Assembly (NCBI GenBank): GCA_964477335.1
Contig: CAYZHI010000001.1
Location: 1 to 27,282, forward strand
Length of the DNA: 27,282 nucleotides
Origin: an uncultured Caldilineaceae bacterium
Lineage (GTDB): Bacteria; Chloroflexota; Anaerolineae; 4572-78; J111
Direction: 5' to 3'
Below the pieces are notes generated by a model that was not told where the DNA came from, did no database searches, and saw only the letters and a program-made list of their open reading frames with translations. Positions 2,556 to 27,282 of this stretch are shown in pieces (the first letter of the stretch is position 1; each line of letters starts with the position of its first letter). Position numbers and translations under genes: made by a program.

Positions 2556-2559
2556 TCCG

Positions 2560-5181: not shown

Positions 5182-5212
5182 CCCGCAGTTGTATTTAACA
5201 TGAGCGAAATCA

Positions 5213-6187: not shown

Positions 6188-6253
6188 CGCTTTACGACTC
6201 CCTCACACCAACCGGTCACCTAACCTACAACGACGATTACGAACGTCAGCTTC

Positions 6254-6283
6254 ATTATACCACGTAACCCCGTCATGATGCAA
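6254..6283 (-). promoter_or_regulatory. Putative sigma-70 promoter of the SH3b gene
   Basis: Minus strand reads TTGCAT-18 nt-TATAAT with an extended -10 (TGgTATAAT). Confidence 0.65.
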
Positions 6284-6332
6284 TATTACGTCAAGTTGAA
6301 TTTTATGTAAACAATTATTTTAAGGTTGAAGC

Positions 6333-7491: not shown

Positions 7492-7570
7492 CCTCGTGAG
7501 CGTATATTTGGGGCACTCTGCTAGTGAAACAACCACACAATTGCCGTACCGGATGGTGCAGGAGTACACC

Positions 7571-10252
7571 TTGATCGGGAAAATCCTTGGCAACCGCTAT
7601 AGAGTTCTCCGCGAAGTTGGCAGCGGGGGCATGGCCTGGGTCTACCTGGCTGAAGATATCAAAGATAATAATTTGGTTGCCGTTAAAGTTTTATACCCCC
7701 AATTTGGTGAAGATTTAGCCTATATTCAGCGTTTCAACCGTGAAGCCAAGCTGGCCAGCATGTTGACCGATCCGCACATCGTCCCCGTTTTAGATTACGG
7801 CGCCGATCGGGATATTCATTACCTGGTTATGGAATTTATTGACGGCAAAGATCTCCGCGAAACGCTGGAGGAAAAGGGGCCATATGCCTGGCGAGAGGCG
7901 CTCGAAATAGTGGATCAGCTGGCCACTGCCCTGGAGCACGCTCATCTTTATGGCATTGTCCACCGAGATATTAAACCCCAAAATATGATGTTGACCGACT
8001 CCGGGCTGCTTAAAGTTCTTGATTTTGGCATTGCCCGGATTCCTACATTGCCCTCATTAACCCAATCTGGTTTTGTGGGTTCACCCTACTATGTTTCACC
8101 GGAGCAAGCTATGGGCGAGGAAATTGATACTCGCTCTGATATCTATTCTTCCGGCATCGTTCTCTATGAATTATTGACCGGTCGAATTCCGTTTGACGCC
8201 AAGAGTCCCTGGTCAATTATCAATCAGCATCTCACCAGCGAACCACCTCCACTTAACCTAACCAACACTGATATTCCGTTAGAAGTTGAACAGTTACTGA
8301 GCCGAATGATCGCTAAGCGACCCGAAGATCGATTTCCCAATCCCAGCGCCTTGCGGCGGGCGCTTAGCGCAGTCTTGGCCGGTGAGCCTATCCCGGATAG
8401 CGCGCTCGACACTCAGCCCATTACACCACCCAATAAACAGGCTATGGCCGATAGTTTTTATCAACGGGCCTTGCGGGCAATGGAAGCTGAGGAGTGGGGT
8501 CGGGCTGCCGACTTGCTGAATCAGGTACTCAGTCTGGTGCCATCCCATAAAGAGGCCTCAGCCAAGCTCATGCTGGCCGACCAGAAGTCTTTTGTAGCGT
8601 CGCTCTTCAACGCCGGCAAACGGGCTTTGAAAAACGAACGGTGGGAAGAAGCCATTAATAGTTTCAACGGCATCCTTGAACTTGAACCAGATCGGTTGGA
8701 GGTTAAGGAGTTGCTGGCTCAGGCTCAGCAAGCTCTGGAAAAGGAAAATGCCGAACAACTCATTATTACACTCTACCACGAAGGCCAGGCTCACCTTGAG
8801 GCGCAACGTTGGGACCTGGCAGTAAAAGCATTTGAAGACGTACAGCGTTTGTCGCCGGATTATAAAGAGGTTGAGCAGTTTCTGGCCGAAGCAAGGCGGA
8901 GGGCCAACCCAACGTTCATCCAAAAAATCGTCTCGATGCGTTATGATAATTGGTGGCGCTGGGGGTTGGTTGCCGCCGGGGTGTTGGTTATCTTTGGGTT
9001 GTTTTTCACGTTTGGCACCGAGAATTCCCCGGTAGCGGGAGACGATAACCTCAGAGAAAAGTTAAAGACACTCTATGCCGACGCTCAGGTGGCAATTCAA
9101 AATGATGACTCAGAACGAGCCATTGCCTTGCTTGACCAAATTTTGGCCGAAGATCCAGACTATGCCAATGCGGCCGACCTGAAGCGAGAGCTAACCATTA
9201 CGCCCACCCCCGCCCCAACCAGCACACCCACCGCCACGCCCGACGCCCTGGCTCCGCTCCTGGCTGAGGCCCAGGCTGCGGTAGAGCTTGGCGATTGGTC
9301 TGCCGCGCTGGAACATTTGGCCGAGATCAAAGAGGCAAATTCAGAATACCAACAAGCTCTGGTCATAGCTCTTTTCTGCGACGCCTCGGTCAATCGCGGG
9401 CTGGAAAAGCTGGCCAACATCGCCCCGGCTGACAACGAGCAAGAAATTGTTCAAGCTGCTTTGGCCGATTTTGAGGCAGGCGCGGCGGCCTGTCCCCGGC
9501 GAACCGATTTACGAGATCAGTTAGATCGCTCAACGGCCTATCTTAAAGCGCTTAATACCCCTACCAACGACTATGACACCTTGATCCAAACGTTAACCCC
9601 TTTGGTCGCCGCCGACCCTGACTTTGCAACTGCAAAAGCCAAAGACCTCTTGTATAACGCTCACCTTAATCGGGGTGATGCTCGCCGTGAAGCCGGGGAC
9701 TTTGTAGGCGCCTTGAGTGATTATGAAACGGCCCTGGCCTTAAGAGTAGCCAACCCTAATGAGGCCCAAACCCATCGAGCTGAACTGCTGCTATCTTTTG
9801 GTCAGCAGGCCAGCGTGGACAGCTTAGCTACTCCACCACCCGCAGTCACTGCGACCAGCACCACCGGTGCAGAGGAGCCAGCCACACCGGAACCGGTTCG
9901 GATAAGATTCGGGCCGCCCCAATTAATCAGCCCGGAAAATGATGCCCTTTTTGCCGGAAAATTTGGCGATGTCTACGTTGAATGGGCGCCGGTTGGTTCT
10001 CTGGCGCCGGATGAATACTACGACCTGACGGTGATGCACATCTACGCTGACGAACCGACCTATTGGGGTACGGCCACTCGAGAAACTCGGCTGAAACTCA
10101 ATCCAGAAGATATCGGCGTGGGCAGGGCCGGTCAGGATCGTTTTTATTGGTGGGTAACTGTGCGTAAGGCCAATACTGCGTCGGCGGCCAACAGTTTGGA
10201 TTTACCGGTAAGCCGCCAGAGTGAAGGTAGAACTTTCGTTTGGGCTCCCTAA
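7571..10252 (+). CDS. Membrane Hanks-type Ser/Thr protein kinase: kinase - TPR-like repeats - TM - TPR-like repeats - Ig/FN3-like domain
   Basis: Intact motifs GSGGMAWVY, VAVK, HRDIKPQN, DFGIA, SPEQ and DIYS. TPR-like helices on both sides of the TM at ~8951-9016. Start placed at TTG 7571 because CAGGAG lies 6 nt upstream (ORF track starts at 7496; ATG 7553 is an alternative). Confidence 0.93.
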   Translation: MIGKILGNRYRVLREVGSGGMAWVYLAEDIKDNNLVAVKVLYPQFGEDLAYIQRFNREAKLASMLTDPHIVPVLDYGADRDIHYLVMEFIDGKDLRETLEEKGPYAWREALEIVDQLATALEHAHLYGIVHRDIKPQNMMLTDSGLLKVLDFGIARIPTLPSLTQSGFVGSPYYVSPEQAMGEEIDTRSDIYSSGIVLYELLTGRIPFDAKSPWSIINQHLTSEPPPLNLTNTDIPLEVEQLLSRMIAKRPEDRFPNPSALRRALSAVLAGEPIPDSALDTQPITPPNKQAMADSFYQRALRAMEAEEWGRAADLLNQVLSLVPSHKEASAKLMLADQKSFVASLFNAGKRALKNERWEEAINSFNGILELEPDRLEVKELLAQAQQALEKENAEQLIITLYHEGQAHLEAQRWDLAVKAFEDVQRLSPDYKEVEQFLAEARRRANPTFIQKIVSMRYDNWWRWGLVAAGVLVIFGLFFTFGTENSPVAGDDNLREKLKTLYADAQVAIQNDDSERAIALLDQILAEDPDYANAADLKRELTITPTPAPTSTPTATPDALAPLLAEAQAAVELGDWSAALEHLAEIKEANSEYQQALVIALFCDASVNRGLEKLANIAPADNEQEIVQAALADFEAGAAACPRRTDLRDQLDRSTAYLKALNTPTNDYDTLIQTLTPLVAADPDFATAKAKDLLYNAHLNRGDARREAGDFVGALSDYETALALRVANPNEAQTHRAELLLSFGQQASVDSLATPPPAVTATSTTGAEEPATPEPVRIRFGPPQLISPENDALFAGKFGDVYVEWAPVGSLAPDEYYDLTVMHIYADEPTYWGTATRETRLKLNPEDIGVGRAGQDRFYWWVTVRKANTASAANSLDLPVSRQSEGRTFVWAP

Positions 10253-12547: not shown

Positions 12548-15067
12548 TTACATACCCCACGACATCCGCTCATTGGTCCATTCACGATCGCCGCCAGCCC
12601 CCCACGGATTGCCTTTGGGAAAGTCAAACAGCTTGGTCACGGCGCCGCCGCCGGTCGAGACCACATACACAGCCCAACCCCCGCCCCGGTCCGAAGCAAA
12701 CGCAACCCACTGGCCATCCGGAGAAATCGTCGGTAAGCCGTCGTTAGAAGTGGGGCTGTTAGAGAGGTTGGTCAATCCCTCACCATTCAGACCCATTACA
12801 TATACTTCCCAATCCCCACTTTCCCTCGAATGCAGGACGACCAGGCTACCCGCCGTATCGGTAGGAGTCAGGCTGGTGCCATCGGCTATCTTGCGGGGTG
12901 TTTCGCCATTGCTGCTGCGTTTGTTAGCCCACGAACCAACGGTAAAAACGCCACAAGATTGACCCCCGGCCCAACTGTTACAACCTTTGTACACAATCTG
13001 GTCGCTCTCAGTCCAGACCGGGTTGCTACCCTGAATTTCACCAACCTGTCCGGCCGGCACCAAAACCCCAAAACGGGCTACATCAATACACGTTTGTTCC
13101 GACTCCTGAGAAGGTGGGATCAAGCCACACTGCACAAAGATATAGGAGTGATAGTTCCCATCAGAACCAATCGCCAATTGTGGATTGTCGTAAGCCAAAC
13201 GATTACCATAAGGGTCATAGGTCGGATGGGAATCGGTCGGTGAGCCACTAACCGCTCTTTCAATGGTCCCGGCGGAGCTTGCTTCAAAAACATTTTCGCC
13301 AAAGCCGCCGCCCTGACCGTTGATGAGTAACTTGGCCCCATCGGGACGAAAATTAGGTTGGCGCGCCCCATCGATCCGGGTAAGTTGTCCACCATCGGGC
13401 ATAGAGACAATGAAAAGATCATACCTGCCACCGCCATTATCGACCGGAAAAGCCAACTTTCCGGAAATAGGTGGTCGTTCGGGTGTTGGGGTGGCCGTAG
13501 GCTCGGCCGGCGGGGCCGGAGTAGGGGTATTGGTGGGTGGACCAGGTGTCGGCGTATCAGTAGGAATGGGCGTGGCCGTAGCTTCTGGTGTTGGCGTTAC
13601 CAGCGCCAGAGCTTCAGCTGTGCTGGCTTCGGCCGTAGCAGTTCGAGCCGTGGCAATCTCAGCCGTGGCCGCTTCAGATGTAGCCAGAAAACTTTGGATG
13701 AGACCCGCCTGCTGTTCAAACTGAGCCGTGGCGGTGTTGGCTATATCAAGCTGAGCCTGGGCGGTCCGGGTGGGAGCAACCACCTCAAGGGCTGCGGCTG
13801 TGCCGGTAGCATTGGCCGCACTCTGGGCCGCTACAGTCTCAGCGGTAGCCGTAGTAGCGGCGTTGTTGGCTGCGGTATTAGTTGCAGCACTAACCGCAGC
13901 AGCCGTTTCTCTTTCCTCAACAGCAGCCGTAGCCGCGGCATCGACCGTGGCCGTAGGCGTTGGCCGGCTCAGGACGAATGCCCCCACTACCCCGGCCACA
14001 ACCAACACCAAGATAATCGCCCCACCAATGGCCAGAGGCAGCACCGGCACGCCCCTGGCCGGAGCTGCAGTGGCTTCAGGAGATAGCACTGTCGCCCCCT
14101 CGCCGGCGCTGCCAAGCGCTGTGGCCGCTTTCTGCCGGCTTCTGAGAGGACCGGTGGGGTGATCAATCTGGTGAATCTTTGGCGGCGGGGCGACCGTTTT
14201 CAGGGGAGTGCTGTGAAGCGTATCGTCGGGGGCCAGGCCAACCGCGTCGCGCAAATCTTTGGCCATTGCTCCGGCACTCTGATAACGGTCATCCGGATTC
14301 TTGCTCATCGCTTTGAGGATGACTTTCTCCACCCCTTCCGGAATGTCTGGATTGATCTTTCGGGGCATCGGTAGTGGTTCACTGATATGCTGCATAATTA
14401 CGGCAAAGGGTGTATCAGCATCGTATGGAACCGTACCGGTAACCATCTCGTAGAGCATCACGCCCAGGGAGTAGATATCGCTGCGCTCATCCCCTCGTTC
14501 ACCCTGACCTTGCTCCGGCGACATATAGGCCGGGGTGCCGGCCAGGGCGCCGGTCTGCGTAAACTGAGTAGCGCCTACAATCCGGGCAATCCCAAAATCG
14601 GTCAGAACGATTTGTCCTTCCTGATTGATCATAACGTTGGCCGGTTTGATATCGCGGTGGACCATGCCGCGGGCATGGGCATAATCAATAGCGCTACACA
14701 ATGCCGTAAAAATTCGGGAGATCTCCTCGTAGGTAAAGGGCTGATTGGCTGCCCGGCGCGCTTTCATTTCCTCCTTCAAAGTCGGGCCGTCGATATACTC
14801 CATCGCCATAAAGTACAGGTCGCCTTCGCGGTCAAAATCAAGCGCCTGCACAATAGCGGGATGGCGTAGTTTACCAATGGCCAGAGCTTCCCGCTCAAAT
14901 CGACCGATGAAATCAGCATCATCGACCAGATGGCTGTGAAGAACTTTGATCCCCACATAGCGATCCAGGCCAGGCTGGTAGGCTTTATAGACTTCAGCCA
15001 TCCCGCCCCGACCTAATCTGGCTACAACTCGATACCGTCCCAGTGTTTTACCAACTAACTCTGCCAT
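12548..15067 (-). CDS. Membrane Hanks-type Ser/Thr protein kinase: kinase - TM - Thr/Ala/Pro-rich stalk - TolB-like (PD40) beta-propeller
   Basis: 839 aa. GRGGMAEVY, VGIK, HRDIKPAN, DFGIA, MSPEQ and DIYSLG. TM at ~13970-14044. Propeller repeats QPNFRPDG, PTISPDGQWVAFASDR at ~12551-13468. Confidence 0.94.
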   Translation of the reverse strand: MAELVGKTLGRYRVVARLGRGGMAEVYKAYQPGLDRYVGIKVLHSHLVDDADFIGRFEREALAIGKLRHPAIVQALDFDREGDLYFMAMEYIDGPTLKEEMKARRAANQPFTYEEISRIFTALCSAIDYAHARGMVHRDIKPANVMINQEGQIVLTDFGIARIVGATQFTQTGALAGTPAYMSPEQGQGERGDERSDIYSLGVMLYEMVTGTVPYDADTPFAVIMQHISEPLPMPRKINPDIPEGVEKVILKAMSKNPDDRYQSAGAMAKDLRDAVGLAPDDTLHSTPLKTVAPPPKIHQIDHPTGPLRSRQKAATALGSAGEGATVLSPEATAAPARGVPVLPLAIGGAIILVLVVAGVVGAFVLSRPTPTATVDAAATAAVEERETAAAVSAATNTAANNAATTATAETVAAQSAANATGTAAALEVVAPTRTAQAQLDIANTATAQFEQQAGLIQSFLATSEAATAEIATARTATAEASTAEALALVTPTPEATATPIPTDTPTPGPPTNTPTPAPPAEPTATPTPERPPISGKLAFPVDNGGGRYDLFIVSMPDGGQLTRIDGARQPNFRPDGAKLLINGQGGGFGENVFEASSAGTIERAVSGSPTDSHPTYDPYGNRLAYDNPQLAIGSDGNYHSYIFVQCGLIPPSQESEQTCIDVARFGVLVPAGQVGEIQGSNPVWTESDQIVYKGCNSWAGGQSCGVFTVGSWANKRSSNGETPRKIADGTSLTPTDTAGSLVVLHSRESGDWEVYVMGLNGEGLTNLSNSPTSNDGLPTISPDGQWVAFASDRGGGWAVYVVSTGGGAVTKLFDFPKGNPWGAGGDREWTNERMSWGM

Positions 15068-15183: not shown

Positions 15184-15212
15184 ATTATAACATTGCCCCT
15201 GTGGTGCGTCAA
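15184..15212 (-). promoter_or_regulatory. Near-consensus sigma-70 promoter of kinase 2
   Basis: Minus strand reads TTGACG-17 nt-TATAAT with an extended -10 TG. Confidence 0.8.
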
Positions 15213-15249: not shown

Positions 15250-18200
15250 TTAAGGAGCCCAGGAAATTCGTTCTTCCAACCAACCTTTCGAATTGTCGAT
15301 ATCTCGTAAAACTTTGCCATCTGGCGAGCCATTCATATTGAATAGCTTTCTTTGATTACTGCCATCGGCGTTCATCACCCAAACGGCCCATGAGCCGCCT
15401 TGATCTGACACGTAGGCAATACTCTGACCATCGGAAGACCAGGCGGGTAACCCCTCATTACTACCATTATTGGTGAGGCGCTGTGGGCTTGAGCCGTCCG
15501 CATTCATCACCCAAATCTCCCAATTAGTGGCCCCCCGAGCAGATGACATAACGGCAATTTTGCTACCATCCGGTGATACCGCCGGAGCGGTATCGGAAAA
15601 TTCACTGCTGATCTTCCTTTCACCACCGCCGTTGGCCCCCATCACATACAAACCACAGTCACCTGCCGGTGAACAGCCTCTCACCACCAATCGCCCATCA
15701 GGGAAGGTGGCGGGATATTCGCCCTGAAAACCGATGCCATAATCCCCATCGCCTGACTGATTACCAACGAAAATGCGGGGCACCCGATCACCTTCGCGGC
15801 GGCTGGCAAAGGCAAACGAGTAACCATCGGGCGACCAGGTAGGTAGGCCATCTTCCACAAAACGGGTCACCTGCCCTTCGCGGCCGCCGATGAAATCTCG
15901 GAAGAAAATGCCGCGGTTGCCCAAATTCCAGGAGCGATAAGCCAGCAAGCTGCCATCCCGGTTAAAGGCTGGCTGGCTGGCCTCAGTCGCAATAATCGTT
16001 TGTTCGCCGGTGGCAATGTCAGCCATCCAGATATCGTAAACATTGCTGCCAGGATTGAACGCCGGGTAGACAATCCGACCACTCACGGCAGCCGCGTCAC
16101 CTGAAGGCGCAGCCGCTTCAGCAGCCGGCGACGCAGCAACCGGCGCTTCCGCCGTCTCAACCTCGGCCTGAGCCGTGGTAGTAACAGCGCCGGTCGTATC
16201 GGTTGGCTCGGCTGCCGTTGTCTCGGTGGTGGTGGATCCAGCATTATAAGCTTCCAGCTCTTCAGCCGTGAAGGGGATGACCAATTCCTGGCCTAACTGC
16301 AAACTTGTAGGATCGGTAATATTGTTCTTGGAGGTCAACAAGTCGACGTCAACGCCAAATCTGGCGGCTATGGCCAGGAGCGTATCACCTGATTGAATTC
16401 GATAAACCAGCGGCGTGGCCGTGCCCTTGGGAGTAGGTGTAGCTGCCGGGGTCGACCTAGCCTCACCCGTTTTAGCGGGCGTAGGCGTGCTCTTCGAATC
16501 TGCTGCTTCATCTTCTTCGCCTGCAGCCGTGGCCTCAGCGGTCATCGGGGTCGCGGCTTGAGCCGCGGCATCGGTGGAGAAGCTAAAGCTGTTGATCATG
16601 GCTTGAAATTGCGGCTGGACCGCATTCCAGGCCGCAGCCGGGGCCAGGGCCACCAGGTAGTAACCGGCTCCGTCCTTGTTGGTTACAGCCAGGGTAGCAA
16701 TTCCCTGGCCACCCAAATCGTCAGCCTGATACCTGATTTGGGCCGAAGTCCAAATCTGGGAAGCAATACTGATGGTACCTTCATTGAGGGTTTCGGCGTC
16801 GCTTGGAAAATCGGCCAAAACTTCGGTCAATAGATCGGCAATGGCCATCCCTTCATCAGCCGACTTACAGATGATCATGACCGCGTCTTTGGGATTGTCC
16901 AGATCAAGTCCGGCTGAGGAGGGCGAGAACATCCCGCAGAGTTCTTCCTCGGCTTGCTGCCAATTCTCGGGATATTCGACCCGATAGCCCAGGTCGGCGC
17001 TACTGAAGGTAGTCAGAGCAACAGGAGTAGAGGAGACTGCGGCCTCAAGTTCAGGTGTAGCCGTTGGACCAGGAGTGGGCGTGGCATCAGGCGGGCCGGC
17101 ATCAAGGGTAGGGGTAAGGCTGGGCACGGCCACCAACCCGCCGCTGCCCAGGTCATCACTCTGAAACCAACTCCAGGTAAAGATCAACCCAACCGCACAA
17201 GCCAACAAAATGACAACGCCGCCCACAAACGTCCACAAGGTACTGGGGAGTGATCGCAACACGTCACCCACAGTGTAACTTTCCTTCTCTGCTATTTGGG
17301 GCTGGGCGGCAGCGGCTTTACCGACAGCGGCGGCTGAAGTTGCAGCACCGGCTTTTGGCTGGGCCGTTTGTTGGGCCGGCGGCGCGACAGGTCTCACCGG
17401 CGCGGTATCAGCCCGCGCCGCTGCCGCAGCCGGGGTCGGCATCGCCTGGGTCACGCTGCGATGAACTTCGGGCGGGGGTGTAGGTTCCACCCGGCGGACC
17501 GGCTCCATCGGCAACGTGTTTTCGCGAGCTCGACGCTCCTGACCCGGCGCAGGTCTAACCGGCCGGCTGGCTGCTCTGGCCGACGGCGAGCGGGGTGAGG
17601 AGATGTTTGAAGCGGCCGCACCCGTCGGAATGATGATGGTAGGCTCATGCACGGCTTCTCGTTTTCTGGGTGGAACAGTACGATTCGGCTCTGTAACCGG
17701 CCGGCTGCCTCTGGCTACAGGCTGGACCTGGAGCTGCTCCTCCTGGCGTCGCGGCGGCACCTCGACGGGCCGGCTGGCTCGCCGCGGCCGTGGCTCTGCT
17801 GCAGCCGGATGAGAAGTAGATTTTGGCTCAGTAACCGGTTGAGGAGCCGGAGTGGTTGCCTTTGGCTCCGGTTTTGCCTCAGGTTCAGGATCGATGACCG
17901 TAATTACTTCAACATCAACCACCTCAACCGGGGGTTCATCCGCTTCGATAAACTCGGCGACCACCGGCTCACGCTTGGCTTCAGCTTTAGGCTTGGCCGA
18001 TTTTGGCTGCTGTTCGATCACCATTGTGGGTGGAGGCTGCGGACTCTCAACCGGTTCACCCGTGGCGTACTTTAGCCATTGTTGACCATCGAAGTAGAAC
18101 CAACTGCCGGAGTCGGTTGGGTCTTTGGGAGGCATCGGCGGCTGGACAGGCCCGGACTCAGCCGGAGCCGGCTGGTCAAACGTACCGGCTCGAGCCTCAT

Positions 18201-19149
18201 GGGCCGGCGCCCCGGCCTGAGCCTGAGGTTGGGCCTGGCCCGGCATGTCGAACTGGCCAGGTTGAGGCGCTACATAAGGTTGGGCCGGCTGGTAGGGTGG
18301 AGCCGCAGGTTGTTGCGGTTGGCTAAGATTCTGTTGGACATATTGAGCGCTGGCAGCTTGAGTTTCCGGTCCCGGTGAGGTAATGTAAATTTGGATTGGC
18401 TGAGTTGGTGAAGTTGGCTGCTGCGGCTGAATCACATAGCCCTGGTTGGCTGCTGGCGAAGCCGGTTGAGGATAGACGGCTGGCTGGTATGGCGACGTCG
18501 CATAGTTTGGCGCCGCCGATCCACGCTGGGGTTGGTAAGGCTGGGTATAGGGCGCCTGAGCGGAGGAAGCCGGGGTTCGAAATTCATGAGCCGGATGCCA
18601 GCCATTTTGGTCATAGAAATACCATTGGCCGGTTTTCTCACCGATAGCCCAATATCGTCCCTCATCATCCTGGAAAAGTTGGCCGTCAAGCTGGCCCGGC
18701 ATACCAGGCCCGGCATCGTGGCTTTGGGGTTGTAACTGAGCCTGAGCGGGCACATATGCCGTGGTTGGCTGCTGGCGGCCCTGTCCCCGGCCTACAGACG
18801 GCGAGGCGACGGCATCGCCTGCCCCAGGTTTGACCCACTCGCCCGTGTCAGCTTGGTAGTAGTACCAGTCTCCACTTTTGACGCCCCGCTGCCAATAGAT
18901 GCCCTGATCGTCCATAAAGGGCAGCCTGTCGGCCTCGCGGGGGTCGGCCTGTTGCCAGTTCTGGCCATCGTAATAATGCCAACTACCAGACTGAGCGCCG
19001 ATCATCCAATATCGACCCCAGCTATCTTGAAACTGAAGTTTATCTACTTCGGCAATATACCTTGCTTCATCGATCTTTCCGGCCTGAAAATCGCGAGCCA
19101 GAATTCTATAACGCTTCTCAAATCTTATTATTTTTTCTTCAATTTCCAT
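15250..19149 (-). CDS. Large bitopic membrane protein: SHOCT-like helices plus Trp-rich repeats - Pro/Gln/Ala low-complexity region - TM - PsbP/DcrB-like - LysM - TolB-like propeller
   Basis: ~1299 aa from ATG 19149 (GGGA 3 nt upstream; the track starts at TTG 19161). TM at 17164-17238. PsbP-like LGYRVEYPENW...FQAMINSFSF at 16579-17016. LysM YRIQSGDTLLAIAARFGV...LQLGQELVIP at 16273-16404. PD40 repeats (PTWSPDG, PAVSPDG, PAWSSDG) at 15253-16086. Confidence 0.88.
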   Translation of the reverse strand: MEIEEKIIRFEKRYRILARDFQAGKIDEARYIAEVDKLQFQDSWGRYWMIGAQSGSWHYYDGQNWQQADPREADRLPFMDDQGIYWQRGVKSGDWYYYQADTGEWVKPGAGDAVASPSVGRGQGRQQPTTAYVPAQAQLQPQSHDAGPGMPGQLDGQLFQDDEGRYWAIGEKTGQWYFYDQNGWHPAHEFRTPASSAQAPYTQPYQPQRGSAAPNYATSPYQPAVYPQPASPAANQGYVIQPQQPTSPTQPIQIYITSPGPETQAASAQYVQQNLSQPQQPAAPPYQPAQPYVAPQPGQFDMPGQAQPQAQAGAPAHEARAGTFDQPAPAESGPVQPPMPPKDPTDSGSWFYFDGQQWLKYATGEPVESPQPPPTMVIEQQPKSAKPKAEAKREPVVAEFIEADEPPVEVVDVEVITVIDPEPEAKPEPKATTPAPQPVTEPKSTSHPAAAEPRPRRASRPVEVPPRRQEEQLQVQPVARGSRPVTEPNRTVPPRKREAVHEPTIIIPTGAAASNISSPRSPSARAASRPVRPAPGQERRARENTLPMEPVRRVEPTPPPEVHRSVTQAMPTPAAAAARADTAPVRPVAPPAQQTAQPKAGAATSAAAVGKAAAAQPQIAEKESYTVGDVLRSLPSTLWTFVGGVVILLACAVGLIFTWSWFQSDDLGSGGLVAVPSLTPTLDAGPPDATPTPGPTATPELEAAVSSTPVALTTFSSADLGYRVEYPENWQQAEEELCGMFSPSSAGLDLDNPKDAVMIICKSADEGMAIADLLTEVLADFPSDAETLNEGTISIASQIWTSAQIRYQADDLGGQGIATLAVTNKDGAGYYLVALAPAAAWNAVQPQFQAMINSFSFSTDAAAQAATPMTAEATAAGEEDEAADSKSTPTPAKTGEARSTPAATPTPKGTATPLVYRIQSGDTLLAIAARFGVDVDLLTSKNNITDPTSLQLGQELVIPFTAEELEAYNAGSTTTETTAAEPTDTTGAVTTTAQAEVETAEAPVAASPAAEAAAPSGDAAAVSGRIVYPAFNPGSNVYDIWMADIATGEQTIIATEASQPAFNRDGSLLAYRSWNLGNRGIFFRDFIGGREGQVTRFVEDGLPTWSPDGYSFAFASRREGDRVPRIFVGNQSGDGDYGIGFQGEYPATFPDGRLVVRGCSPAGDCGLYVMGANGGGERKISSEFSDTAPAVSPDGSKIAVMSSARGATNWEIWVMNADGSSPQRLTNNGSNEGLPAWSSDGQSIAYVSDQGGSWAVWVMNADGSNQRKLFNMNGSPDGKVLRDIDNSKGWLEERISWAP

Positions 19150-19167
19150 TGTTCCCACCACAAGCTA

Positions 19168-19419: not shown

Positions 19420-21195
19420 ATGAACAAGAAACTTATTTCTATTGGTTTGAGCATTCTATTGCTAGCCACCATTATAATTGGAACAGCTCTCTGGATAAGA
19501 GTCTATTTTGACTCTATCAAAAATTACCGCTCGCCGCTACGCCAGGTTGAATTAGCGCCGCAACCATCGATTTCGCCCGGTCCCACCAACCGGGTGGTGA
19601 TCATCCTCATTAGTGGTTTAGGTTATGATGACACCCTGGCCTTGAACTTGCCCGTGCTGGAGCAGCTCAGGCAGGCCGGCGCGACCGCCGCAATTGAAAG
19701 CATTCCACCCAGCTATGCTCAAACGACCTGGGCTACTTTGATTACCGGCGCCCCCCCCGAAACCAACGACGCCGCCCCGGTGGACCTGCCCCTGGCCGAG
19801 ATACACTCCCTAGAAACCGATACCATCTTTGCCCAAGCCCAGGCAGCCGGTCTAAAAACGGCGCTGCTGGGACTGGCTGCCTGGTCAAAGTTGCTCCCCC
19901 AAGGCCAAATCAATCACAGTTTCTTCGTCAATGAGGCCGGGCCTGCGGCTGATCAGGCCATCTTTGAAGCAGCTTTGCCGCTCATTGAAAATGACCAGGC
20001 CGACCTACTGCTGTTTCATTTTACCCAGGTTGATGAAGCTGCTCAAGCGTCGGGCGGCACGGCCAGCGAAGCTTACCGCCAGGCTGCGGCCCAGGTCGAT
20101 GCTTATCTAAATCAAATCAGCGCCGCGATGGACCTCAATCGCAGTGTTTTGATCGTTTTGTCTGACCACGGTCACATTGCCAAAGGGGGGCACGGGGGCA
20201 ACGAAGTTGAGGTTATCTGGCAGCCCCTGGTCATGATTGGCGAGAACGTTATTCCCGGCAATTACAGTGACGTTTCTCAAACAGACGTGGCTCCGACTAT
20301 CGCCACATTGTTAGGTCTGCCTGTGCCTACTGCCGCCCAGGGGCGAATTCTGTTCGAGCTGTTACATCTGACCCAAGCCGAACGGGCCACGGCGCAGATG
20401 GCGCTTACCCGGCAGCGAGTTGCGCTAACCGAGGCTTACTTGAGTCAAATTGGCGGGCCTGAGTCGAAATTGCCGGAACAGTTGTTGGCCGACCTCGACC
20501 GGGCTCAGGGCGCGCTGGAAAAAAATAACTTGGGGGGGGCATTCCAACTGGCTGGCTTAGCCCAAACGGAGGCCGACGCCCAAATGGCTGCGGCTCGCCA
20601 CAAGCGCTTGAGTACTGAACAGTTCAGAAGGTTCATTGGGGCTAGTCTCATCGCCCTGCTCTGGTTTGTAACCATGTGGCACCGCCGCGGCTTCCACGCC
20701 GGCTTAATTGTGATTGCCGCCCTTCTGACCGTGGCCTTGTACCATACGCTTTACCAGATACAGGGCTACAGTTACTCCCTCAGCTCGGTGAAACCATTGA
20801 CCGAACTCCCCCTTGAGATTGCCCGTCGAACGGCCGTCAGTCTGCTGGTTGGTGGGGGGGTGGTGCTGGTGGTGCTGATGCTGGTCAAAGAGGATAACTG
20901 GCTCACCTTGCTCGGTAGTGGTTATGGCTTTGGGTTGCTGGTTACCTTTATCTTTGCGTTGCCGCTCTTGTGGGCTTTTTGGCAGAACGGTTTTGTGGTC
21001 ACCTGGCATCTACCCGGGGTATTGCCGGCCTTTTGGCAGCTAACGGCGCTTTTTGAAGTTTTGGCGTCGGCCATTTTGGCCCTGCTACTACCCTGGCCGA
21101 TTATGATGTTGAACCTATTCGTCAGCCTGACTCGCCATTACCTCAGCGGGACCCGCTCGCAAAAGTCCGATGTTCTGCCGGGATTACATTTGTGA
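19420..21195 (+). CDS. Alkaline phosphatase/NPP superfamily membrane protein with degenerate metal ligands and C-terminal TM bundle
   Basis: 591 aa. N-terminal TM, RVVIILISGLGYD, TWATLITG, LSDHGH, GGHG, QTDVAPTIATLLGLPVP..AQGR, and ~5-6 C-terminal TM helices. Confidence 0.85.
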   Translation: MNKKLISIGLSILLLATIIIGTALWIRVYFDSIKNYRSPLRQVELAPQPSISPGPTNRVVIILISGLGYDDTLALNLPVLEQLRQAGATAAIESIPPSYAQTTWATLITGAPPETNDAAPVDLPLAEIHSLETDTIFAQAQAAGLKTALLGLAAWSKLLPQGQINHSFFVNEAGPAADQAIFEAALPLIENDQADLLLFHFTQVDEAAQASGGTASEAYRQAAAQVDAYLNQISAAMDLNRSVLIVLSDHGHIAKGGHGGNEVEVIWQPLVMIGENVIPGNYSDVSQTDVAPTIATLLGLPVPTAAQGRILFELLHLTQAERATAQMALTRQRVALTEAYLSQIGGPESKLPEQLLADLDRAQGALEKNNLGGAFQLAGLAQTEADAQMAAARHKRLSTEQFRRFIGASLIALLWFVTMWHRRGFHAGLIVIAALLTVALYHTLYQIQGYSYSLSSVKPLTELPLEIARRTAVSLLVGGGVVLVVLMLVKEDNWLTLLGSGYGFGLLVTFIFALPLLWAFWQNGFVVTWHLPGVLPAFWQLTALFEVLASAILALLLPWPIMMLNLFVSLTRHYLSGTRSQKSDVLPGLHL

Positions 21196-21218
21196 AATGT
21201 AAAAAGTGAAACGTGATT
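21191..21218 (+). repeat. Degenerate heptamer array over the stop codon of the AP-fold gene
   Basis: TGTGAAA TGTAAAA AGTGAAA CGTGATT. Confidence 0.5.
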
Positions 21219-21252
21219 CTATTCAACTTCTGATTTTTACCGAGGTGGAGCT

Positions 21253-22095
21253 ATGCGGATTATCATCACCGGCGCCAACGGCCAGTTGGGCCAGGCCCTG
21301 CAAAACCAGTTGGCCGAACACGATGTCATCCCCACGGATATTCCCGAATTTGACATTACCGATCATGCCATCGTCCAGCGATTTGCCCAGATGCGGCCCG
21401 AGCTGATCATCCACTGCGCCGCTATGACCGACGTGGACGGCTGCGCCAGAGACCCCGATACGGCCTTCAAGATCAATGCCTTTGGCACGCAAAACGTCGC
21501 CCACGCCTGCCTGCAGACCAACGCCGAGATGGTCTATATCTCCACCAACGAGGTCTTTGACGGCCGGGCTGACATCCCCTACCGGGAGGAAGATCACCCC
21601 AGCCCCATCAATGCTTACGGCAGTTCCAAAAGATCGGGCGAACAGATGGCGGCTCGCTACGTGAAAGACAGGCTCTACATTGTCCGCACCGCCTGGCTAT
21701 ATGGCGACAACGAGCGCATGTTTCCAGGCAAAATCATCGCCGCGGCCGACCAACACGCCGAGCTGCGCGTGGTCACCGACGAGGTGAGCAATCCCACCTA
21801 TGCGCCCGACCTGGCTGAGGCTGTGGCCAAATTGATCCAAAGCCGGGCTTACGGCATCTATCATTTTACCAATTCAGGCTATTGTTCCCGCTATGAATTT
21901 GCCCAGGAGATTCTGCGCCTGGCCAGCCGGGCGCATGTGCCGGTCCAGCCCATCACCCTGGCCGATTACCCGCGGGCGACCACAGTGCCTCATTTCACCG
22001 CCCTGGCCAATACCAAGGGCGCGGCGTTGGGGATTGAGTTGCGACCCTGGCAGGCGGCGTTGGCGGCGTATTTTGGGGTTCGGGTAGGGAAATAG
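21253..22095 (+). CDS. rfbD: dTDP-4-dehydrorhamnose reductase (RmlD family)
   Basis: 280 aa. GANGQLG, IHCAAMTDVDGC, YIST, YGSSK (YxxxK), RTAWLYG, VVTDEVSNPTY and GIYHFTN. RBS GAGGTGGAG. Confidence 0.9.
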   Translation: MRIIITGANGQLGQALQNQLAEHDVIPTDIPEFDITDHAIVQRFAQMRPELIIHCAAMTDVDGCARDPDTAFKINAFGTQNVAHACLQTNAEMVYISTNEVFDGRADIPYREEDHPSPINAYGSSKRSGEQMAARYVKDRLYIVRTAWLYGDNERMFPGKIIAAADQHAELRVVTDEVSNPTYAPDLAEAVAKLIQSRAYGIYHFTNSGYCSRYEFAQEILRLASRAHVPVQPITLADYPRATTVPHFTALANTKGAALGIELRPWQAALAAYFGVRVGK

Positions 22096-22116
22096 TTACG
22101 GGAAAGAGAATCGACG

Positions 22117-22554
22117 TCACCCACCCGGCGGCTCTACCCCCAGATTTTCCGGCCCAAAACTGTGGGGCAGCAAATCTGGCAGGGTGAAAACCCGGTAATG
22201 GCCGGCCAGATCGCCCACAATGACCGTCAGATCGGGGGAAAATTCACGCATCACCTGCCGGCAAACACCGCAGGGCGCGCCGCCGTCGCTGGTGACGACG
22301 GCAATGGCCTCAAAATCAAGTTCGCCTTCAGATACAGCCTTGAAGATGGCTGTACGCTCGGCGCAGTTAGCCGGACCGTAAGCGGCATTCTCGATGTTGC
22401 AGCCAGTGTAAACCTTGCCGCTGCCGGTTAATAAGGCCGCCCCGACTCTGTAATGAGAATAGGGCGCATAGGCATAGGCTCTGGCAGCTATCGCCTGCTC
22501 AAGCAAGCTGGCCCACTTTTGTGAGGCTGGAGATCCGTGGTTGATGGAGTCCAT
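22117..22554 (-). CDS. cdd: Cytidine deaminase (homotetrameric type)
   Basis: AYAPYSHYRVGAAL, GCNIENAAYG, CAERTA and PCGVCRQ Zn motifs. Confidence 0.96.
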   Translation of the reverse strand: MDSINHGSPASQKWASLLEQAIAARAYAYAPYSHYRVGAALLTGSGKVYTGCNIENAAYGPANCAERTAIFKAVSEGELDFEAIAVVTSDGGAPCGVCRQVMREFSPDLTVIVGDLAGHYRVFTLPDLLPHSFGPENLGVEPPGG

Positions 22555-22560
22555 TTTGAT

Positions 22561-23940
22561 TTAGGGTGATCCCGAAATGGGTTTGTGGCTGGTTTTGTTA
22601 ACCAGGCCAGATGCCTTTTGATTGGCGCTGACCGGCTGGTTCTTGTACTCATCCCCTCTGGACTTCTCTCTAATCCGCTGAGTTCTGACCCGGCCAATCC
22701 GGCGCCCCTCCACATCCAGCACGGTCAACCGCAAACCGGCTACCACCACCGCGTCGCCGACCTCCGGGACCCGGCCCAACAGGTTGTAGACCAGCCCGCC
22801 CAGTGTATCAGCTTCGTCGGTCGGCAGCTCGGCCGCCATCAAGTCATTGATGTCATCCAGGTCCATCCGGGCGCTGAATATATATTCCTCTTCGGAGACT
22901 TGCTGCATCCAGAACTCTTCCGGATCATACTCATCCTGAATATCGCCTACAATCTCTTCCAGCACATCTTCAATGGTGACCAGACCGGCCGTGCCGCCAT
23001 ACTCATCCACCACAATGGCAATATGCACTTTGCGACTCTGTAATTCGCGCAGCAGTTCGCTCAAAGGTTTGGTTTCAGGCACAAAGTAAACATCCCGGGC
23101 CAGCTCATAAACGGATTTGGCCACGCCGCCATCGCGCCAATAGCTCAACAGATCTTTGGCGTACAGAATCCCAACAATATTATCGATATTGTCGACATAA
23201 ACCGGCACGCGCGAATGACCCGCTTCCAAAATCACGTCGAGTGCCTCCATGATGGGCGTCTTGGCCTCCACTGCAATCATATCGATACGGGGTACCATAA
23301 CTTCCCGGGCCACCGTGTCGCCAAGATCAAAGATCGAGTAGATCATCTCCTTCTCGTCTTCGCGCAGCACCCCTTCTTCTTCACCAGCATCCACATAGGT
23401 ACGCAGCTCCTCTTCGGTGATGGCGTTGAAGTTGTAGGTTCCTTCTTCACCCAAGCGACCGGTCAAAAATCGACCAATCCCGGAGACAAACTGGGCCAGG
23501 GGAGCGGCCAGAAAAGAGAGCAGATACAAGGGGTGGGCGGCCCAAAAAGCGATCGGCTCGGCGTAGTTGCGCCCGATCTCTTTGGGGATCAACTCGCCAA
23601 AAATAAGGGTTACCAGGGCAGTCACAATGGTAATCAACAGCACTGCCCAGAAATAATCGAGCGATAACGCCTGCGCCAGGGGCGCGGTGTAAACAAAAGC
23701 AGCAAAAGCAACGATGGAAAAGCCAACAAGCTTGAGGATGAGCTGCTCGGTTGTCAATAAACGGTTGGAGTCATCGGCCAACCGGTTGATAATCGCCGCG
23801 GCGTAATGGCCCTCTTCCAACAACTGCAACCGCCGTGGTCGGCGAATGGAGATAATGGCTTCTTTGGCCGCAGCAAAAAAAGCGTACAAAAAAAGTAACA
23901 CAACAAGGACAACTATGGGCGCCGAACTGTCAGGGTCCAA
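22561..23940 (-). CDS. HlyC/CorC family (CNNM/DUF21 plus CBS pair plus CorC_HlyC) putative Mg/Co transporter
   Basis: 459 aa. [57 protein letters not shown] and DTLGGLV. TTG start preceded by AGGAG. Confidence 0.95.
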
Positions 23941-24051
23941 CGAATCAACTCCTGTAAATCTTTCATTTTTAGTAAGATATTATTCATTTCTTGCCGGAAA
24001 ACTGCAAATATACGCCGGTGGCGTCATCCAGAAGCGAGGATATTGGTCAAA

Positions 24052-25389
24052 TTACTTTCCTATTTTCTGCATCAACTCATCCCGTGTCTTACCGGATAAA
24101 TCCAGCCGGTTATCCCGCACCTCATAACTGGTCCGAGCGGGCAACGCAATCTTGTTGGGCGGTAGATCATCCAGCAGAGTCACCCCTGGCCCCACAATGC
24201 TATTAGGGCCTACTTTCACCCCCGGCGTCAACACGCTGTTGCAGCCGGTTCGGCAGCCCTCGGCCATGATGACTCCAAATTTATTGGTACCGATACCCAT
24301 CTGCTTGTCGCCTACGCTGACCCGCACCTCTTCTTCATCAAAGCGAAAATTGGCGGTGATGGTCCCGGCCCCAAAAGAGCAATTATCGGACACAATTGAG
24401 TCGCCGACATAATTGCGATGGGTCCAGACATTGCGGCCAAAAATAGAGTGCTTGATCTCCGAACCAAAACCAACCACACAACCCGGCCCAAAAGAACAGC
24501 CGCCCCACACCATCGCATTGTTACCGATCACGCTGCCTGCGCCAATATAGGCCGGCCCGCGGATGACCGCATGCTCAAACACACGCACGTTATCACCGAT
24601 GATGACATTATCGCCAATCACCGCCCGATCGGATTTTTTGGCCGAAGGGCTGATTTGTTGTCCTTTGATTTTTTGACTCAGCAACAAATCGCTGATCGTC
24701 AACAGATTCCAGGGGAATTTGTATGACTCAAACAGGCCATCGTAAGCCACATGAACGGCCTGGCCGCGATCGATCAGCAGTTGGTAGGCTCGCTCGAACT
24801 GGTCGTCAGTTTCGCCCAGGGGGGTATCACGGATGCATTGAAAAATATCAGGTGAAAAATAGTACACCCCAATTACGGCCACATCGCTTGGCTCTTGCCC
24901 GGCCGGCGGTTTTTCGATCACCCCCACCAACCGGCCCTCGCTATCAAAGCGCATCACCCCAAAGCGCCACGGTTCGGTGACTCTGCGACCAATCAGGGCC
25001 AGGTTGGCTTGAGCTTCGTTAGCCCGGCTCATCACCTCGGTCAACAGGCTGGAGTCAAAAATATCATTGGCATTCAAGACAAAGAAATGGCTATGGATCA
25101 AACGCTCGGCGGCCTGAACCGCATTGGCCTGCCCTAATGGTTGCGCCTGATAGGCATATTGTATCTTGACCTCAAAATCGCGGCCATCGCCAAAATAATT
25201 ATGAATCTGCTCTTGATTAGGGCCGGTTACAATAATCAGATCGGTGATCCCGGCCTCGCGCAGGTTCTCCACCACAAATTGGATGAGTGGTTTCCCTATA
25301 ATTTCAAACATCGACTTGGGTTTGTTAATGCCAAGCGGATGGATTCGTTTCCCTTCACCACCTGCCAGAATAACCGCTTGTATCGACAT
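24052..25389 (-). CDS. Bifunctional sugar-1-phosphate nucleotidylyltransferase/acetyltransferase (archaeal ST0452-type GlmU-like)
   Basis: 445 aa. ILAGGEGKRIHP...KPK, YQAQPLGQANA, FGV...IEKP, hexapeptide repeats, HRNYVGDSIV and FGAGTITAN. RBS AAGGGAG. Confidence 0.88.
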   Translation of the reverse strand: MSIQAVILAGGEGKRIHPLGINKPKSMFEIIGKPLIQFVVENLREAGITDLIIVTGPNQEQIHNYFGDGRDFEVKIQYAYQAQPLGQANAVQAAERLIHSHFFVLNANDIFDSSLLTEVMSRANEAQANLALIGRRVTEPWRFGVMRFDSEGRLVGVIEKPPAGQEPSDVAVIGVYYFSPDIFQCIRDTPLGETDDQFERAYQLLIDRGQAVHVAYDGLFESYKFPWNLLTISDLLLSQKIKGQQISPSAKKSDRAVIGDNVIIGDNVRVFEHAVIRGPAYIGAGSVIGNNAMVWGGCSFGPGCVVGFGSEIKHSIFGRNVWTHRNYVGDSIVSDNCSFGAGTITANFRFDEEEVRVSVGDKQMGIGTNKFGVIMAEGCRTGCNSVLTPGVKVGPNSIVGPGVTLLDDLPPNKIALPARTSYEVRDNRLDLSGKTRDELMQKIGK

Positions 25390-25448
25390 CGGCTCGATCT
25401 CCCTTTGACTTTTACTGTTTCTTACGTAATCGTTTCCAAATCTCCGGA

Positions 25449-25703
25449 TTACGACTGTGAGGGTTGCTTGTATATTTCACGCGGCTCAGCCATCATAACC
25501 GGTACGGCCAGCTCATTGGCAGGATCAGGTTGCAAACCAATCACCGTCTCAGTGTTATGGTACGGTAAAGCATTCACCTGTCGGGTTTATTCTTCAAGGG
25601 TGAAACACTCGGCGAACCATACCGAATTCAGTTGGTCGATGATCCGCTGTAACAGGGTAATCTTATCAAGATGGGGCTCTTCCAAGGAGATTGCCTCGGT
25701 CAT
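25449..25703 (-). pseudogene. Possible small gene (84-codon frame) interrupted by one in-frame TAA, or a 38-aa ORF
   Basis: ATG 25703 overlaps the PMM stop (ATGA). Manual translation: MTEAISLEEPHLDKITLLQRIIDQLNSVWFAECFTLEE*(25587-25589)TRQVNALPYHNTETVIGLQPDPANELAVPVMMAEPREIYKQPSQS*. Confidence 0.35.
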
Positions 25704-27070
25704 TGGCGGGATTCGCCCTCCAACCGATTGAGTTCAGCCTCAACCAAAGCCTGGACCCTGGTCTGGATCATGGCTAAGGCTTCACGACTACGGGCCTCAA
25801 AACGCATGGAGATAACCGGCTGGGTATTGGACTGGCGCACTAAAGCCCAGCCTTCGTCAAAGTGGATGCGGGCCCCATCGAGTACATCCACATAGTAATC
25901 ATTGGCAAATTGAGCTTTAATCCGCTCAACCACCCGAGCTTTGACCTCATCCCGGCACTTGACGCGCAGTTCAGGCGAAGAGTGATAAGTTGGCAAGTCG
26001 GCCACCAGCGCTGACAACGGATACGCGCTTTGCGCCAAAATATTGAGCAGTTTGACCGTAGCCAAAATGGCATCGTCAAAGCGAAACTCCGGTTCATTGA
26101 GAAAGAGATGGCCGGAAAGCTCTCCACCCAAGGCGGCCCCGGTTTGCTGCATTGCCTGGTGCACAAAAGCATAACCAGAGGGTGTCATCACCGGTTCGCC
26201 GCCGTGGGCCCGCACGTCATCGGCTAATGCCTGGGTGCACAATATTTCGTACACAATCTTGGCCGGTCCCCCCTGCAATATGTCACGCGCCAAAATCATC
26301 ATGATCTGGTCGCCCAACACCCGATTGCCGGCTTCATCCACCACCACCAGCCGGTCGCCATCGCCATCGTAAGCCAGCCCTAAATCAGCTTTTTCGGCCT
26401 TGACCAATAGCGACAACGCGTCGGTCGCCCCACTTTTGGTTGGATCGGGGCTGCGGTTGGGAAAAGCGCCATCCGGCTCGACAAAAAGTTCAAAAACCGT
26501 GTGTCCCAGTTGGCGCAGCAGTTCGACCACCACCGGCCCATTGGTGCCATTGCCGCCGTCTACCGCGATTTTCAGAGATCGGCCAGGCCGAACATATCGC
26601 CGCAAAGCAGCCAAGTAGGGAGGCAGAGCATCCTTTTCCAAAACTGTACCCTGTCCAGCCACAAAGTTGCCACCAACAGCCAGTTGAAAAATTTGCTGAA
26701 TCTCCCCGCCGGTTAATGTTTGGCGACCTCGAATCTTAAGACCATTATCCTCTGGCGGGTTATGGCTGGCAGTGACCATTATGCCACCGGCGGCGGCCAG
26801 GAAATCCGTGGCAAAATTATGCACCGGGGTGGGTACAAGGCCCACATCGATTACCTTAACTCCCGTTTGGGCTAAACCGGTTATGAGCGCCCGGCTAATC
26901 CGGGCGGAACTATTACGTACATCGCGACCAACTACCAAGGTCTGCTTGTCGTGCCGCCTGAAGTAAGTGCCAATTGCTCGCCCAACCCGAACCACCACCT
27001 CGTTGGTCAAATCCTGCTCAGCCACACCTCGGATGCTAAATTCGCGAAAGATATGGGGAGAAATCTGCAT
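25700..27070 (-). CDS. Phosphomannomutase/phosphoglucomutase (alpha-D-phosphohexomutase, AlgC-like)
   Basis: 456 aa. Phosphoserine loop TASHNP, metal loop DGDGDR, sugar loop GELSGH, and VRQSNTQP. Confidence 0.95.
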   Translation of the reverse strand: MQISPHIFREFSIRGVAEQDLTNEVVVRVGRAIGTYFRRHDKQTLVVGRDVRNSSARISRALITGLAQTGVKVIDVGLVPTPVHNFATDFLAAAGGIMVTASHNPPEDNGLKIRGRQTLTGGEIQQIFQLAVGGNFVAGQGTVLEKDALPPYLAALRRYVRPGRSLKIAVDGGNGTNGPVVVELLRQLGHTVFELFVEPDGAFPNRSPDPTKSGATDALSLLVKAEKADLGLAYDGDGDRLVVVDEAGNRVLGDQIMMILARDILQGGPAKIVYEILCTQALADDVRAHGGEPVMTPSGYAFVHQAMQQTGAALGGELSGHLFLNEPEFRFDDAILATVKLLNILAQSAYPLSALVADLPTYHSSPELRVKCRDEVKARVVERIKAQFANDYYVDVLDGARIHFDEGWALVRQSNTQPVISMRFEARSREALAMIQTRVQALVEAELNRLEGESRQ

Positions 27071-27220
27071 TTTTGATCCAACCCACTGAATTTATTGAGG
27101 ATAATTCATCGGCAAGGAAATACAGCATCTTCGAGGATACTTTTAGACACCTCAACCAGATCAAAGAGCCGTCCAATTGTTGTATTGTAACACTAAGGTC
27201 CAGAAAATAAAAAAAGCCCT

Positions 27221-27282
27221 CTTGGCAATGACCTACTCTCCCAGAGGGTCGCCCCTCAAGTACCATCGGCGCTGGCGGGCTT
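27221..27282 (-). rRNA. rrf: 5S rRNA, 3' half (runs off the right edge of the window)
   Basis: Reverse complement AAGCCCGCCAGCGCCGATGGTACTTGAGGGGCGACCCTCTGGGAGAGTAGGTCATTGCCAAG contains the conserved 5S elements GCCGATGGTA and GGGAGAGTAGG. The exact 3' end is uncertain by a few nt. Confidence 0.95.

Follow-up and report, generated by a model that had tools for sequence, protein, structure and literature searches.

An unnamed tryptophan-rich module with SHOCT-like helices in a Chloroflexota envelope protein encoded beside a Hanks kinase

The WW domain (PF00397) is a small, Trp- and Tyr-rich antiparallel sheet that ends in W...P and offers a plausible peptide-binding surface; its signature is two Trp residues 20-23 amino acids (aa) apart and then W-x2-P. 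Choline- or cell-wall-binding repeats (PF19127, PF01473) are extracellular, contiguous solenoid units of ~20 aa with an aromatic hairpin, G-x-W-Y-Y-[FY]-D, while the blades of beta-propellers (Reg_prop PF07494, NHL, PD40) are four-stranded meanders with a D..G.lW.G...G...yD pattern that sit contiguously in a closed ring. SHOCT and SHOCT-like domains (PF09851; DUF1707) consist of two short helices with the signature G-x-[IL]-x-x-x-E-[FY]. SHOCT itself is a widespread short domain of unknown function, and its description reports early tests that gave no support for oligomerisation (PMC3581485). For SHOCT-like bihelical units, an intracellular, membrane-proximal position has been predicted, as has a role in anchoring diverse domains to the inner leaflet (PMC11237479). 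In the D5_N (PF08706) collar of D5/P4-type primase-helicases, a helix precedes a small Trp-containing sheet, and in vaccinia D5 the corresponding segment combines a helix with a 'little three-stranded beta-sheet' and belongs to the collar of the hexameric helicase (PMC9611036). Here we compare with these systems a Trp-repeat protein encoded in a stretch of 27,282 nucleotides from an uncultured Caldilineaceae bacterium (contig CAYZHI010000001.1; hereafter the window). Our results suggest that this envelope protein crosses the membrane once and that its Trp repeats make up a cytoplasmic head, which begins with a ~68-aa module joining a SHOCT-like hairpin to a beta-meander.

The repeat-protein gene lies on the minus strand of the window at 15250-19161, a 1303-aa open reading frame (ORF) for a single-pass membrane protein, with the Trp repeats at the 5' end. 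Since the N-termini of orthologues read MNNIEELE, the true start codon is likely the ATG at 19149 (M5), which is also the upper bound of the range given in a preliminary description of this DNA made from the letters alone. That description had listed three full Trp repeats and a half copy, and all four proved to be in frame. Copy 1 is FQDSWGRYWMIGAQSGSWHYYDGQNWQQADP (aa 44-74, 18940-19032), within a predicted Trp beta-meander at aa 43-74 (18940-19035). Copy 2, FMDDQGIYWQRGVKSGDWYYYQADTGEWVKP (aa 82-112, 18826-18918), consists of the beta-meander only, as does copy 3, FQDDEGRYWAIGEKTGQWYFYDQNGWHP (aa 163-190, 18592-18675), whose meander extends over aa 161-193 (18583-18681) with disordered linkers on both sides. 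The half copy, TDSGSWFYFDGQQWLK (aa 349-364, about 18068-18117), retains only the beta3-beta4 hairpin (SGSWFYFDGQQW; aa 349-366, 18064-18117) and lies within a variable Pro/Gln-rich tail. Copies 1 and 2 are joined by a short conserved linker, READRLP (aa 75-81, 18919-18939), for which AlphaFold predicts a helix at 74-79; its mean identity is 0.66, and P74, A77, D78, L80 and P81 in and around it are invariant among orthologues. The gaps between successive units are 7, 48 and about 155 aa.

The full motif occurs three times and the hairpin core four times in the repeat protein, and neither appeared in any of 20,000 shuffles. A profile hidden Markov model (HMM) built from unrelated or distant family members recovered all four copies, with independent E-values (i-E) of 6e-21, 2e-10, 1e-16 and 8e-5, and found no further match when run against all six translated frames of the window. 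Among GTDB species genomes, a scan yielded 29 loci, 27 of them orthologous and all of those from Chloroflexota (Caldilineaceae/Anaerolineae); one locus, L001, shares 93% identity and complete synteny with the window, and one distant single-module relative comes from an Aminicenantes metagenome-assembled genome. One full module and two beta-only copies are present in every one of the 27 orthologues, and the half copy was detected in 24. Measured against 13 full-length orthologues, mean identity is 0.75 for copy 1, 0.59 for copy 2 and 0.73 for copy 3, compared with 0.52 for the LysM domain and 0.64 for the propeller further along the protein. The half copy is a conservation island of its own, with a mean identity of 0.61. 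Because the full repeats reach 0.59-0.75 whereas the linkers between copies reach only 0.12-0.23, the Trp repeats are the most constrained part of the protein, with linkers free to vary. The Trp repeats are real and strongly conserved.

Ahead of copy 1 lies a two-helix hairpin (aa 5-42, 19036-19149, minus strand) whose sequence at aa 17-42 is RYRILARDFQAGKIDEARYIAEVDKL. The preliminary description had called these helices SHOCT-like, and this is borne out. AlphaFold places helices at 3-26 and 32-40 (predicted local distance difference test, pLDDT, >95) in a two-helix hairpin, and AGKIDEARYIAEV carries the SHOCT motif G-x-I-x-x-x-E-[FY] in a region that, like SHOCT, is short and made of two helices. 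The window's own helices gave no match to Pfam SHOCT at E <= 10 and stay below its cut-off of 27 bits, but 11 of 121 homologous modules match that model at E <= 0.01 (best E 2e-11). In one of them, P0047, the match reaches 27.8 bits and falls on the helices directly ahead of the beta part. Since the helices of relatives match Pfam SHOCT, the SHOCT-like assignment of the window helices is supported, through transitive homology at the sequence level and without a direct match. The setting differs from that of SHOCT in two ways: the hairpin is N-terminal here whereas SHOCT is C-terminal, and it always occurs joined to a Trp beta-meander, which SHOCT lacks.

The preliminary description had proposed surveying the range and domain partners of the repeats with an HMM, and such a survey uncovered a far larger family. 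Word-indexed homologue searches reached close orthologues or a few fragments, and the family was exposed only by an exhaustive profile search of 1.84 billion cluster representatives (clusters at 50% identity), which at E <= 1e-3 returned at least 1,459 clusters, 206 of them also passing E <= 1e-10. Beyond the orthologues, nearly all matches cover profile positions ~5-70, that is, the helices and the first repeat together. Because the matches span both jointly, the sequence comparisons identify the evolutionary unit as a ~68-aa module of a SHOCT-like hairpin plus one beta-meander. The family consensus is F..xE..Y..L.....AG.I....F......L...D..GR.W.IG...G.W...DG..W....P, in which little or no variation is seen at three Trp, the D, three Gly and the last Pro; the first ~68-aa copy of the window matches the family HMM at i-E 4e-30 and so falls within the proposed family. 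Three results go beyond the preliminary description: the union of helices and first repeat in one module, a Choline_bind_3 signal, and a conserved kinase neighbour with a paralogous ectodomain, the latter two described below.

The architecture of the family was taken from 125 distant representatives and its partner domains from 121 scanned members. The module starts within the first 12 residues in 107 of the 125; at least one transmembrane (TM) helix follows it in 91 and one precedes it in only 2, and a CxxC...CxxC zinc ribbon stands ahead of it in 10. In most family members the module is 20-60 aa from the TM helix, and Pro makes up 18% of the 40 aa following it, versus 8% overall. Partner domains include zinc ribbons (about 26 members), TPR (17), PD40 (14) and CarboxypepD_reg (12). 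In other lineages the whole 68-aa unit is tandemly repeated two to three times, whereas beta-only copies are specific to the orthologue group of the window. Traceable members come mostly from Chloroflexota, whose uncultured lineages carry the module widely, and it also occurs in some other phyla; cluster look-ups gave the taxon labels Anaerolineae and Fimbriimonadaceae and protein names that were either 'hypothetical protein' or taken from other domains (tetratricopeptide repeat protein, formylglycine-generating enzyme).

Two kinds of relatives deserve separate mention. Five giant multi-TM proteins of 1660-2012 aa (P0034, P0071, P0076, P0080 and P0149; P0076 is from Fimbriimonadaceae) have two or three full modules in tandem at their N-terminal end, and four of the five pass the D5_N cut-off purely by summed partial matches of their beta units, which could cause misannotation. 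The 850-aa protein P0150, annotated by its source as a formylglycine-generating enzyme, carries its module internally (aa 485-554). The N-terminal segment ahead of it (…VFVSYSHEDEQWV…) is TIR-like on visual inspection, and the protein gives the module a further cytoplasmic setting.

The AlphaFold model of aa 1-116 (pLDDT 90.4; predicted template modelling score, pTM, 0.76) consists of the helix hairpin followed by four-stranded antiparallel meanders, with the strands of copy 1 at 43-45, 51-54, 61-64 and 69-71. Copy 3 modelled alone (pLDDT 89.7) also gives four strands, at 7-9, 15-18, 25-29 and 32-35, and since this copy stands alone amid disordered linkers, the beta unit is autonomous according to the models. 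A sheet of 30 aa bears three invariant Trp plus Tyr/Phe, and therefore aromatic side chains must be exposed. As the preliminary description had it, the module is unnamed: no model in Pfam (in the copy searched, the newest models are from 2025) or NCBIfam (release 20) covers the beta part. PDB sequence searches with three profiles found no significant relative, the weak or partial hits being fascin, designed beta-trefoils and a MetE helix, and Foldseek gave no match at E <= 1e-3 either in the PDB, for a two-copy and a single-copy model, or in BFVD. The SHOCT-like hairpin is thus a known element, and what is new is its combination with a small beta domain that lies outside Pfam, NCBIfam and the PDB.

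The location of this module in the cell follows from the membrane topology. The repeat protein has a single TM helix (aa ~641-666, 17164-17241, minus strand), the sole segment with a Kyte-Doolittle score >1.6; Lys and Arg flank it on the N-side, the C-side is acidic without Lys or Arg, and the protein has no signal peptide. Pfam and NCBIfam recognise only the C-terminal half of the protein, an ectodomain (15253-17025, minus strand) with a weak PsbP-like region (aa 713-861), a LysM domain (aa 918-964) and a PD40/TolB-like beta-propeller (aa ~1026-1303). The downstream neighbour (12548-15067, minus strand) encodes a Hanks Ser/Thr kinase domain, then a TM helix, then a PD40 propeller. This last domain and the propeller of the repeat protein are paralogues (29% identity over 316 aa, E 9e-24). 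The catalytic domain of this kinase lies on the N-terminal side of its TM helix, the same layout as the head of the repeat protein. The kinase domain must be cytoplasmic and the two propellers are paralogous; therefore the propellers are outside and the N-terminal 640 residues of the repeat protein, with all Trp repeats, are cytoplasmic. An extracellular position of the repeats, which the preliminary description had named as a finding that would speak against its own interpretation, is thus not what the topology indicates.

The head is carried on a tail of ~600 aa that is mostly variable and disordered, interrupted by conserved islands. An acidic, Val/Ile-rich island, AKREPVVAEFIEADEPPVEVVDVEVITVIDPEPEAKPEP (aa 395-433, 17863-17979, minus strand; mean identity 0.62, net charge -9), is a candidate partner or ligand segment. 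Two further islands, REAVHEPTIIIPTGAAASNI (aa 501-520) and SRPVRPAPGQERRARENTLPMEPVR (aa 532-556), lie together at 17494-17661 in a basic, Pro/Arg-rich stretch (aa 434-636, net charge +13) and are candidate ligands. All three may be short linear motifs or docking sites. The beta units themselves are acidic, with a net charge of -2 to -4 here and a family mean of -2, and the helices are neutral to acidic.

We then propose a model in which the head of the repeat protein works as a multivalent protein- or peptide-docking platform. It begins with the ~68-aa module, in the predicted fold a SHOCT-like hairpin packed on a four-stranded antiparallel sheet that three invariant Trp hold together. Its beta part (consensus D..GR.W.IG...G.W...DG..W....P), copied twice more and followed by a lone hairpin, sets 3.5 acidic, aromatic-faced units on the ~600-aa tail, where they could receive extended, probably Pro- and Arg-rich segments. 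Candidate ligands are the basic islands conserved in its own tail and the Pro-rich, basic juxtamembrane linker (aa 270-345) of the neighbouring Hanks kinase. Such docking would organise or gate a signalling complex, and outside the cell the repeat protein and the kinase would meet through their paralogous TolB-like propellers, with LysM contacting peptidoglycan. The model draws on the exposed aromatics, the acidic units, the basic Pro/Arg-rich tail islands and the Pro-rich basic kinase linker; from these we infer that the module binds peptides or proteins, what its ligands are and that it is functionally linked to the kinase. It is also consistent with the gene order: with a single exception, every orthologue locus that has enough sequence downstream carries the kinase-PD40 gene there on the same strand, although orthologues share only 60-70% identity in the N-terminal module, and the ectodomains are paralogous. 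We put forward an acidic, aromatic docking platform working with the adjacent kinase tentatively, at somewhat less than an even chance.

Several points weigh against this proposal. The binding role is itself a deduction, the nearest structural neighbours of the modelled beta unit are propeller blades (none of them significant) and not peptide-binding domains, and the Pro-rich stretches that follow the module could be mere linkers. One orthologue locus, L006, has no kinase downstream. The distant family members L028 and L029 show no kinase neighbour, and the kinase link is therefore specific to the orthologue group of the window and not a property of the module. In the 182-nt gap ahead of the kinase gene there is a near-consensus sigma-70-like promoter, TTGACG-17-TATAAT with an extended TG (15184-15212, minus strand; a consensus match only), so the kinase gene may have its own promoter. 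No terminator-like site or hairpin was found in that gap between the two genes.

The blade-like neighbours lead to the main alternative, in which the units do not capture ligands and instead associate with one another, in trans or in cis, gathering the protein, on the cytoplasmic side, into rings or higher-order oligomers. The beta unit shares with propeller blades the four-stranded meander and the D..G.lW.G...G...yD pattern, and blades give its best superpositions: the Foldseek lists for both the two-copy and the single-copy model are mostly blades (BT4663/BT4673 Reg_prop, virginiamycin B lyase, NHL, YCF48, designed Pizza, RSL lectin), headed by 4a2l_C (E 0.025, prob 0.84). Likewise, Reg_prop reaches 19.4 bits in the relative P0033, close to its cut-off of 20.4. 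Positions 3-44 of D5_N, which in D5 belong to the hexameric collar, align to the beta unit with up to 21.7 bits for single units (cut-off 22.4) and with 32-35 bits when summed in triple-module relatives, above the cut-off at the sequence level. The tandem arrangement of whole modules in other lineages would also suit self-association. Against it, the structural matches all have E >0.01: single units superpose on blades with TMq 0.5-0.62 and a root-mean-square deviation (rmsd) of 1.6-3.4 A at E >1, and two-unit superpositions are poor, with an rmsd of about 9 A. Unlike blades, copies 2 and 3, and 3 and 4, are split by 50-150 variable, disordered residues, and the early SHOCT tests also gave no support for oligomerisation. 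We regard self-assembly as possible but unlikely.

Membership in either family is a separate matter. A propeller formed within one chain was rejected: it needs at least four contiguous blades, and the protein offers only 3.5 units, set apart by long variable linkers. There is no closed ring of contiguous blades here, and the matches to blades stay short of significance or of the cut-off. Membership in D5_N was rejected because only positions 3-44 of 145 match and the repeat protein has no SF3 helicase. The repeat protein itself scores 8-16 bits against D5_N, the helical bundle of that domain is also lacking, and no D5-like protein appeared in the PDB or viral (BFVD) Foldseek lists.

A more elaborate version joins self-assembly to the kinase. 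The Trp meander would be a free-standing blade-like or collar-like unit that closes a ring in trans under the membrane, with the hairpin as a spacer, and the family would be a hitherto unrecognised means of clustering envelope sensors with a single membrane pass. In the repeat protein such clustering would seed a hetero-complex that includes the Hanks kinase, and the half copy, as a cap or velcro strand, would control whether the ring closes. It is tempting to speculate along these lines, but we consider this scenario improbable.

The preliminary description had favoured a WW-like bacterial module that could recognise Pro-rich or phosphorylated Ser/Thr-Pro motifs, either in its own tail or in the linkers of kinases. 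Its appeal lies in the G-x-W-Y-Y-x-D-(x)n-W...P pattern, which resembles the beta2-beta3 hairpin of WW, in the cytoplasmic location beside a kinase gene, and in 12 SP/TP sites within aa 113-636, although these fall mostly in poorly conserved sequence. The scores do not follow the appearance. Pfam WW scores the full protein at 10.6 bits and aa 1-202 at 15.1 bits (E 0.024), far below the gathering cut-off of 26.9, which even an artificial concatenate of the three repeats does not reach (18.7 bits). An hhalign comparison with a WW alignment assembled by hand gave a probability of 4.6% over 10 columns. From W52 to W69 the Trp spacing is 17 aa and the unit ends W69-x4-P74, as across the family consensus, instead of 20-23 aa and W-x2-P, and the unit has four strands, not three. 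The Foldseek check proposed in the preliminary description turned out contrary to its expectation, with no WW domain among the top 50 PDB matches for the single unit. WW membership was rejected on the HMM score, the Trp spacing, the strand number and the fold search. A WW-like reader of such motifs is doubtful, and the beta unit is best described as an unnamed, blade-like Trp meander and not as a WW domain.

Equally doubtful is an inner-leaflet anchor, in which the SHOCT-like hairpin and interfacial Trp would tether the head to the membrane from the cytoplasmic side. The anchoring predicted for SHOCT-like bihelical domains (PMC11237479), the shared intracellular, membrane-proximal setting and the short distance to the TM helix in most family members suggest it, and Trp and Tyr favour membrane interfaces. 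The charge of the beta units and helices would be unfavourable on anionic bacterial membranes, however, and in the repeat protein some 570 residues separate the head, modelled by AlphaFold as a compact, soluble-looking fold, from the TM helix.

Choline- or glucan-binding repeats had been named in the preliminary description as an example of an unrelated family that the repeats might match, and a signal of this kind does exist. Choline_bind_3 (PF19127) is the top Pfam signal of the repeat protein, at 24.6 bits (E 2.5e-5) against a cut-off of 27, which is passed only by the artificial concatenate (27.5 bits); the match spans model positions 28-43 only, a G-x-W-Y-Y-x-D hairpin of 10-16 residues, and hhalign against a hand-assembled alignment of LytA repeats gives 78% probability over a 10-column hairpin only. 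An extracellular choline-, glucan- or cell-wall-binding role is extremely improbable, and membership was rejected, since the units lie on the N-terminal, cytoplasmic side of the sole TM helix of a protein without a signal peptide, are ~31 aa long and separated by linkers where such repeats are contiguous and ~20 aa, and sit in a protein whose LysM already provides wall binding outside. Together, the four sub-threshold similarities, to Choline_bind_3, WW, Reg_prop and D5_N, share one aromatic hairpin.

The remainder of the window provides the genomic setting. A second Hanks kinase with a TM helix and a long, TPR-rich extracytoplasmic region is encoded on the plus strand at 7496-10252, and its homologue is convergent to the kinase-PD40 gene in many orthologue loci, so that a three-gene neighbourhood is conserved. 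The regions 807-7355 and 19420-27070 are rich in envelope-glycan genes, which encode a GH5-like hydrolase, a PMT_2 glycosyltransferase, an SH3_3 protein, a GT2, a membrane alkaline-phosphatase/sulfatase-like (AlkP-like) protein, RmlD, a nucleotidyl-transferase/hexapeptide protein and a phosphoglucomutase; in almost every orthologue locus, the AlkP-like and RmlD genes are found upstream of the repeat gene and divergent from it. Rfam identified a tRNA gene at 600-673 (minus strand) and the 3' part of a 5S rRNA gene at 27220-27282 (minus strand), cut by the window end.

Together, our results describe a real, unnamed, strongly selected domain with a conserved kinase partner, and nothing mechanistically unprecedented as yet. 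At the least, they provide a domain-level annotation for hypothetical proteins that are now unnamed or labelled by other domains. If our interpretation is correct, the module would be a widespread cytoplasmic domain of single-pass envelope proteins, found in at least 1,459 clusters, and the understudied SHOCT-like hairpin would gain a fixed structural partner. The pairing with a kinase that bears the same kind of ectodomain would then offer a tractable system for wall sensing in Chloroflexota through LysM and the TolB-like propeller, in which to ask how such sensing is coupled to cytoplasmic signalling without a classical output domain.

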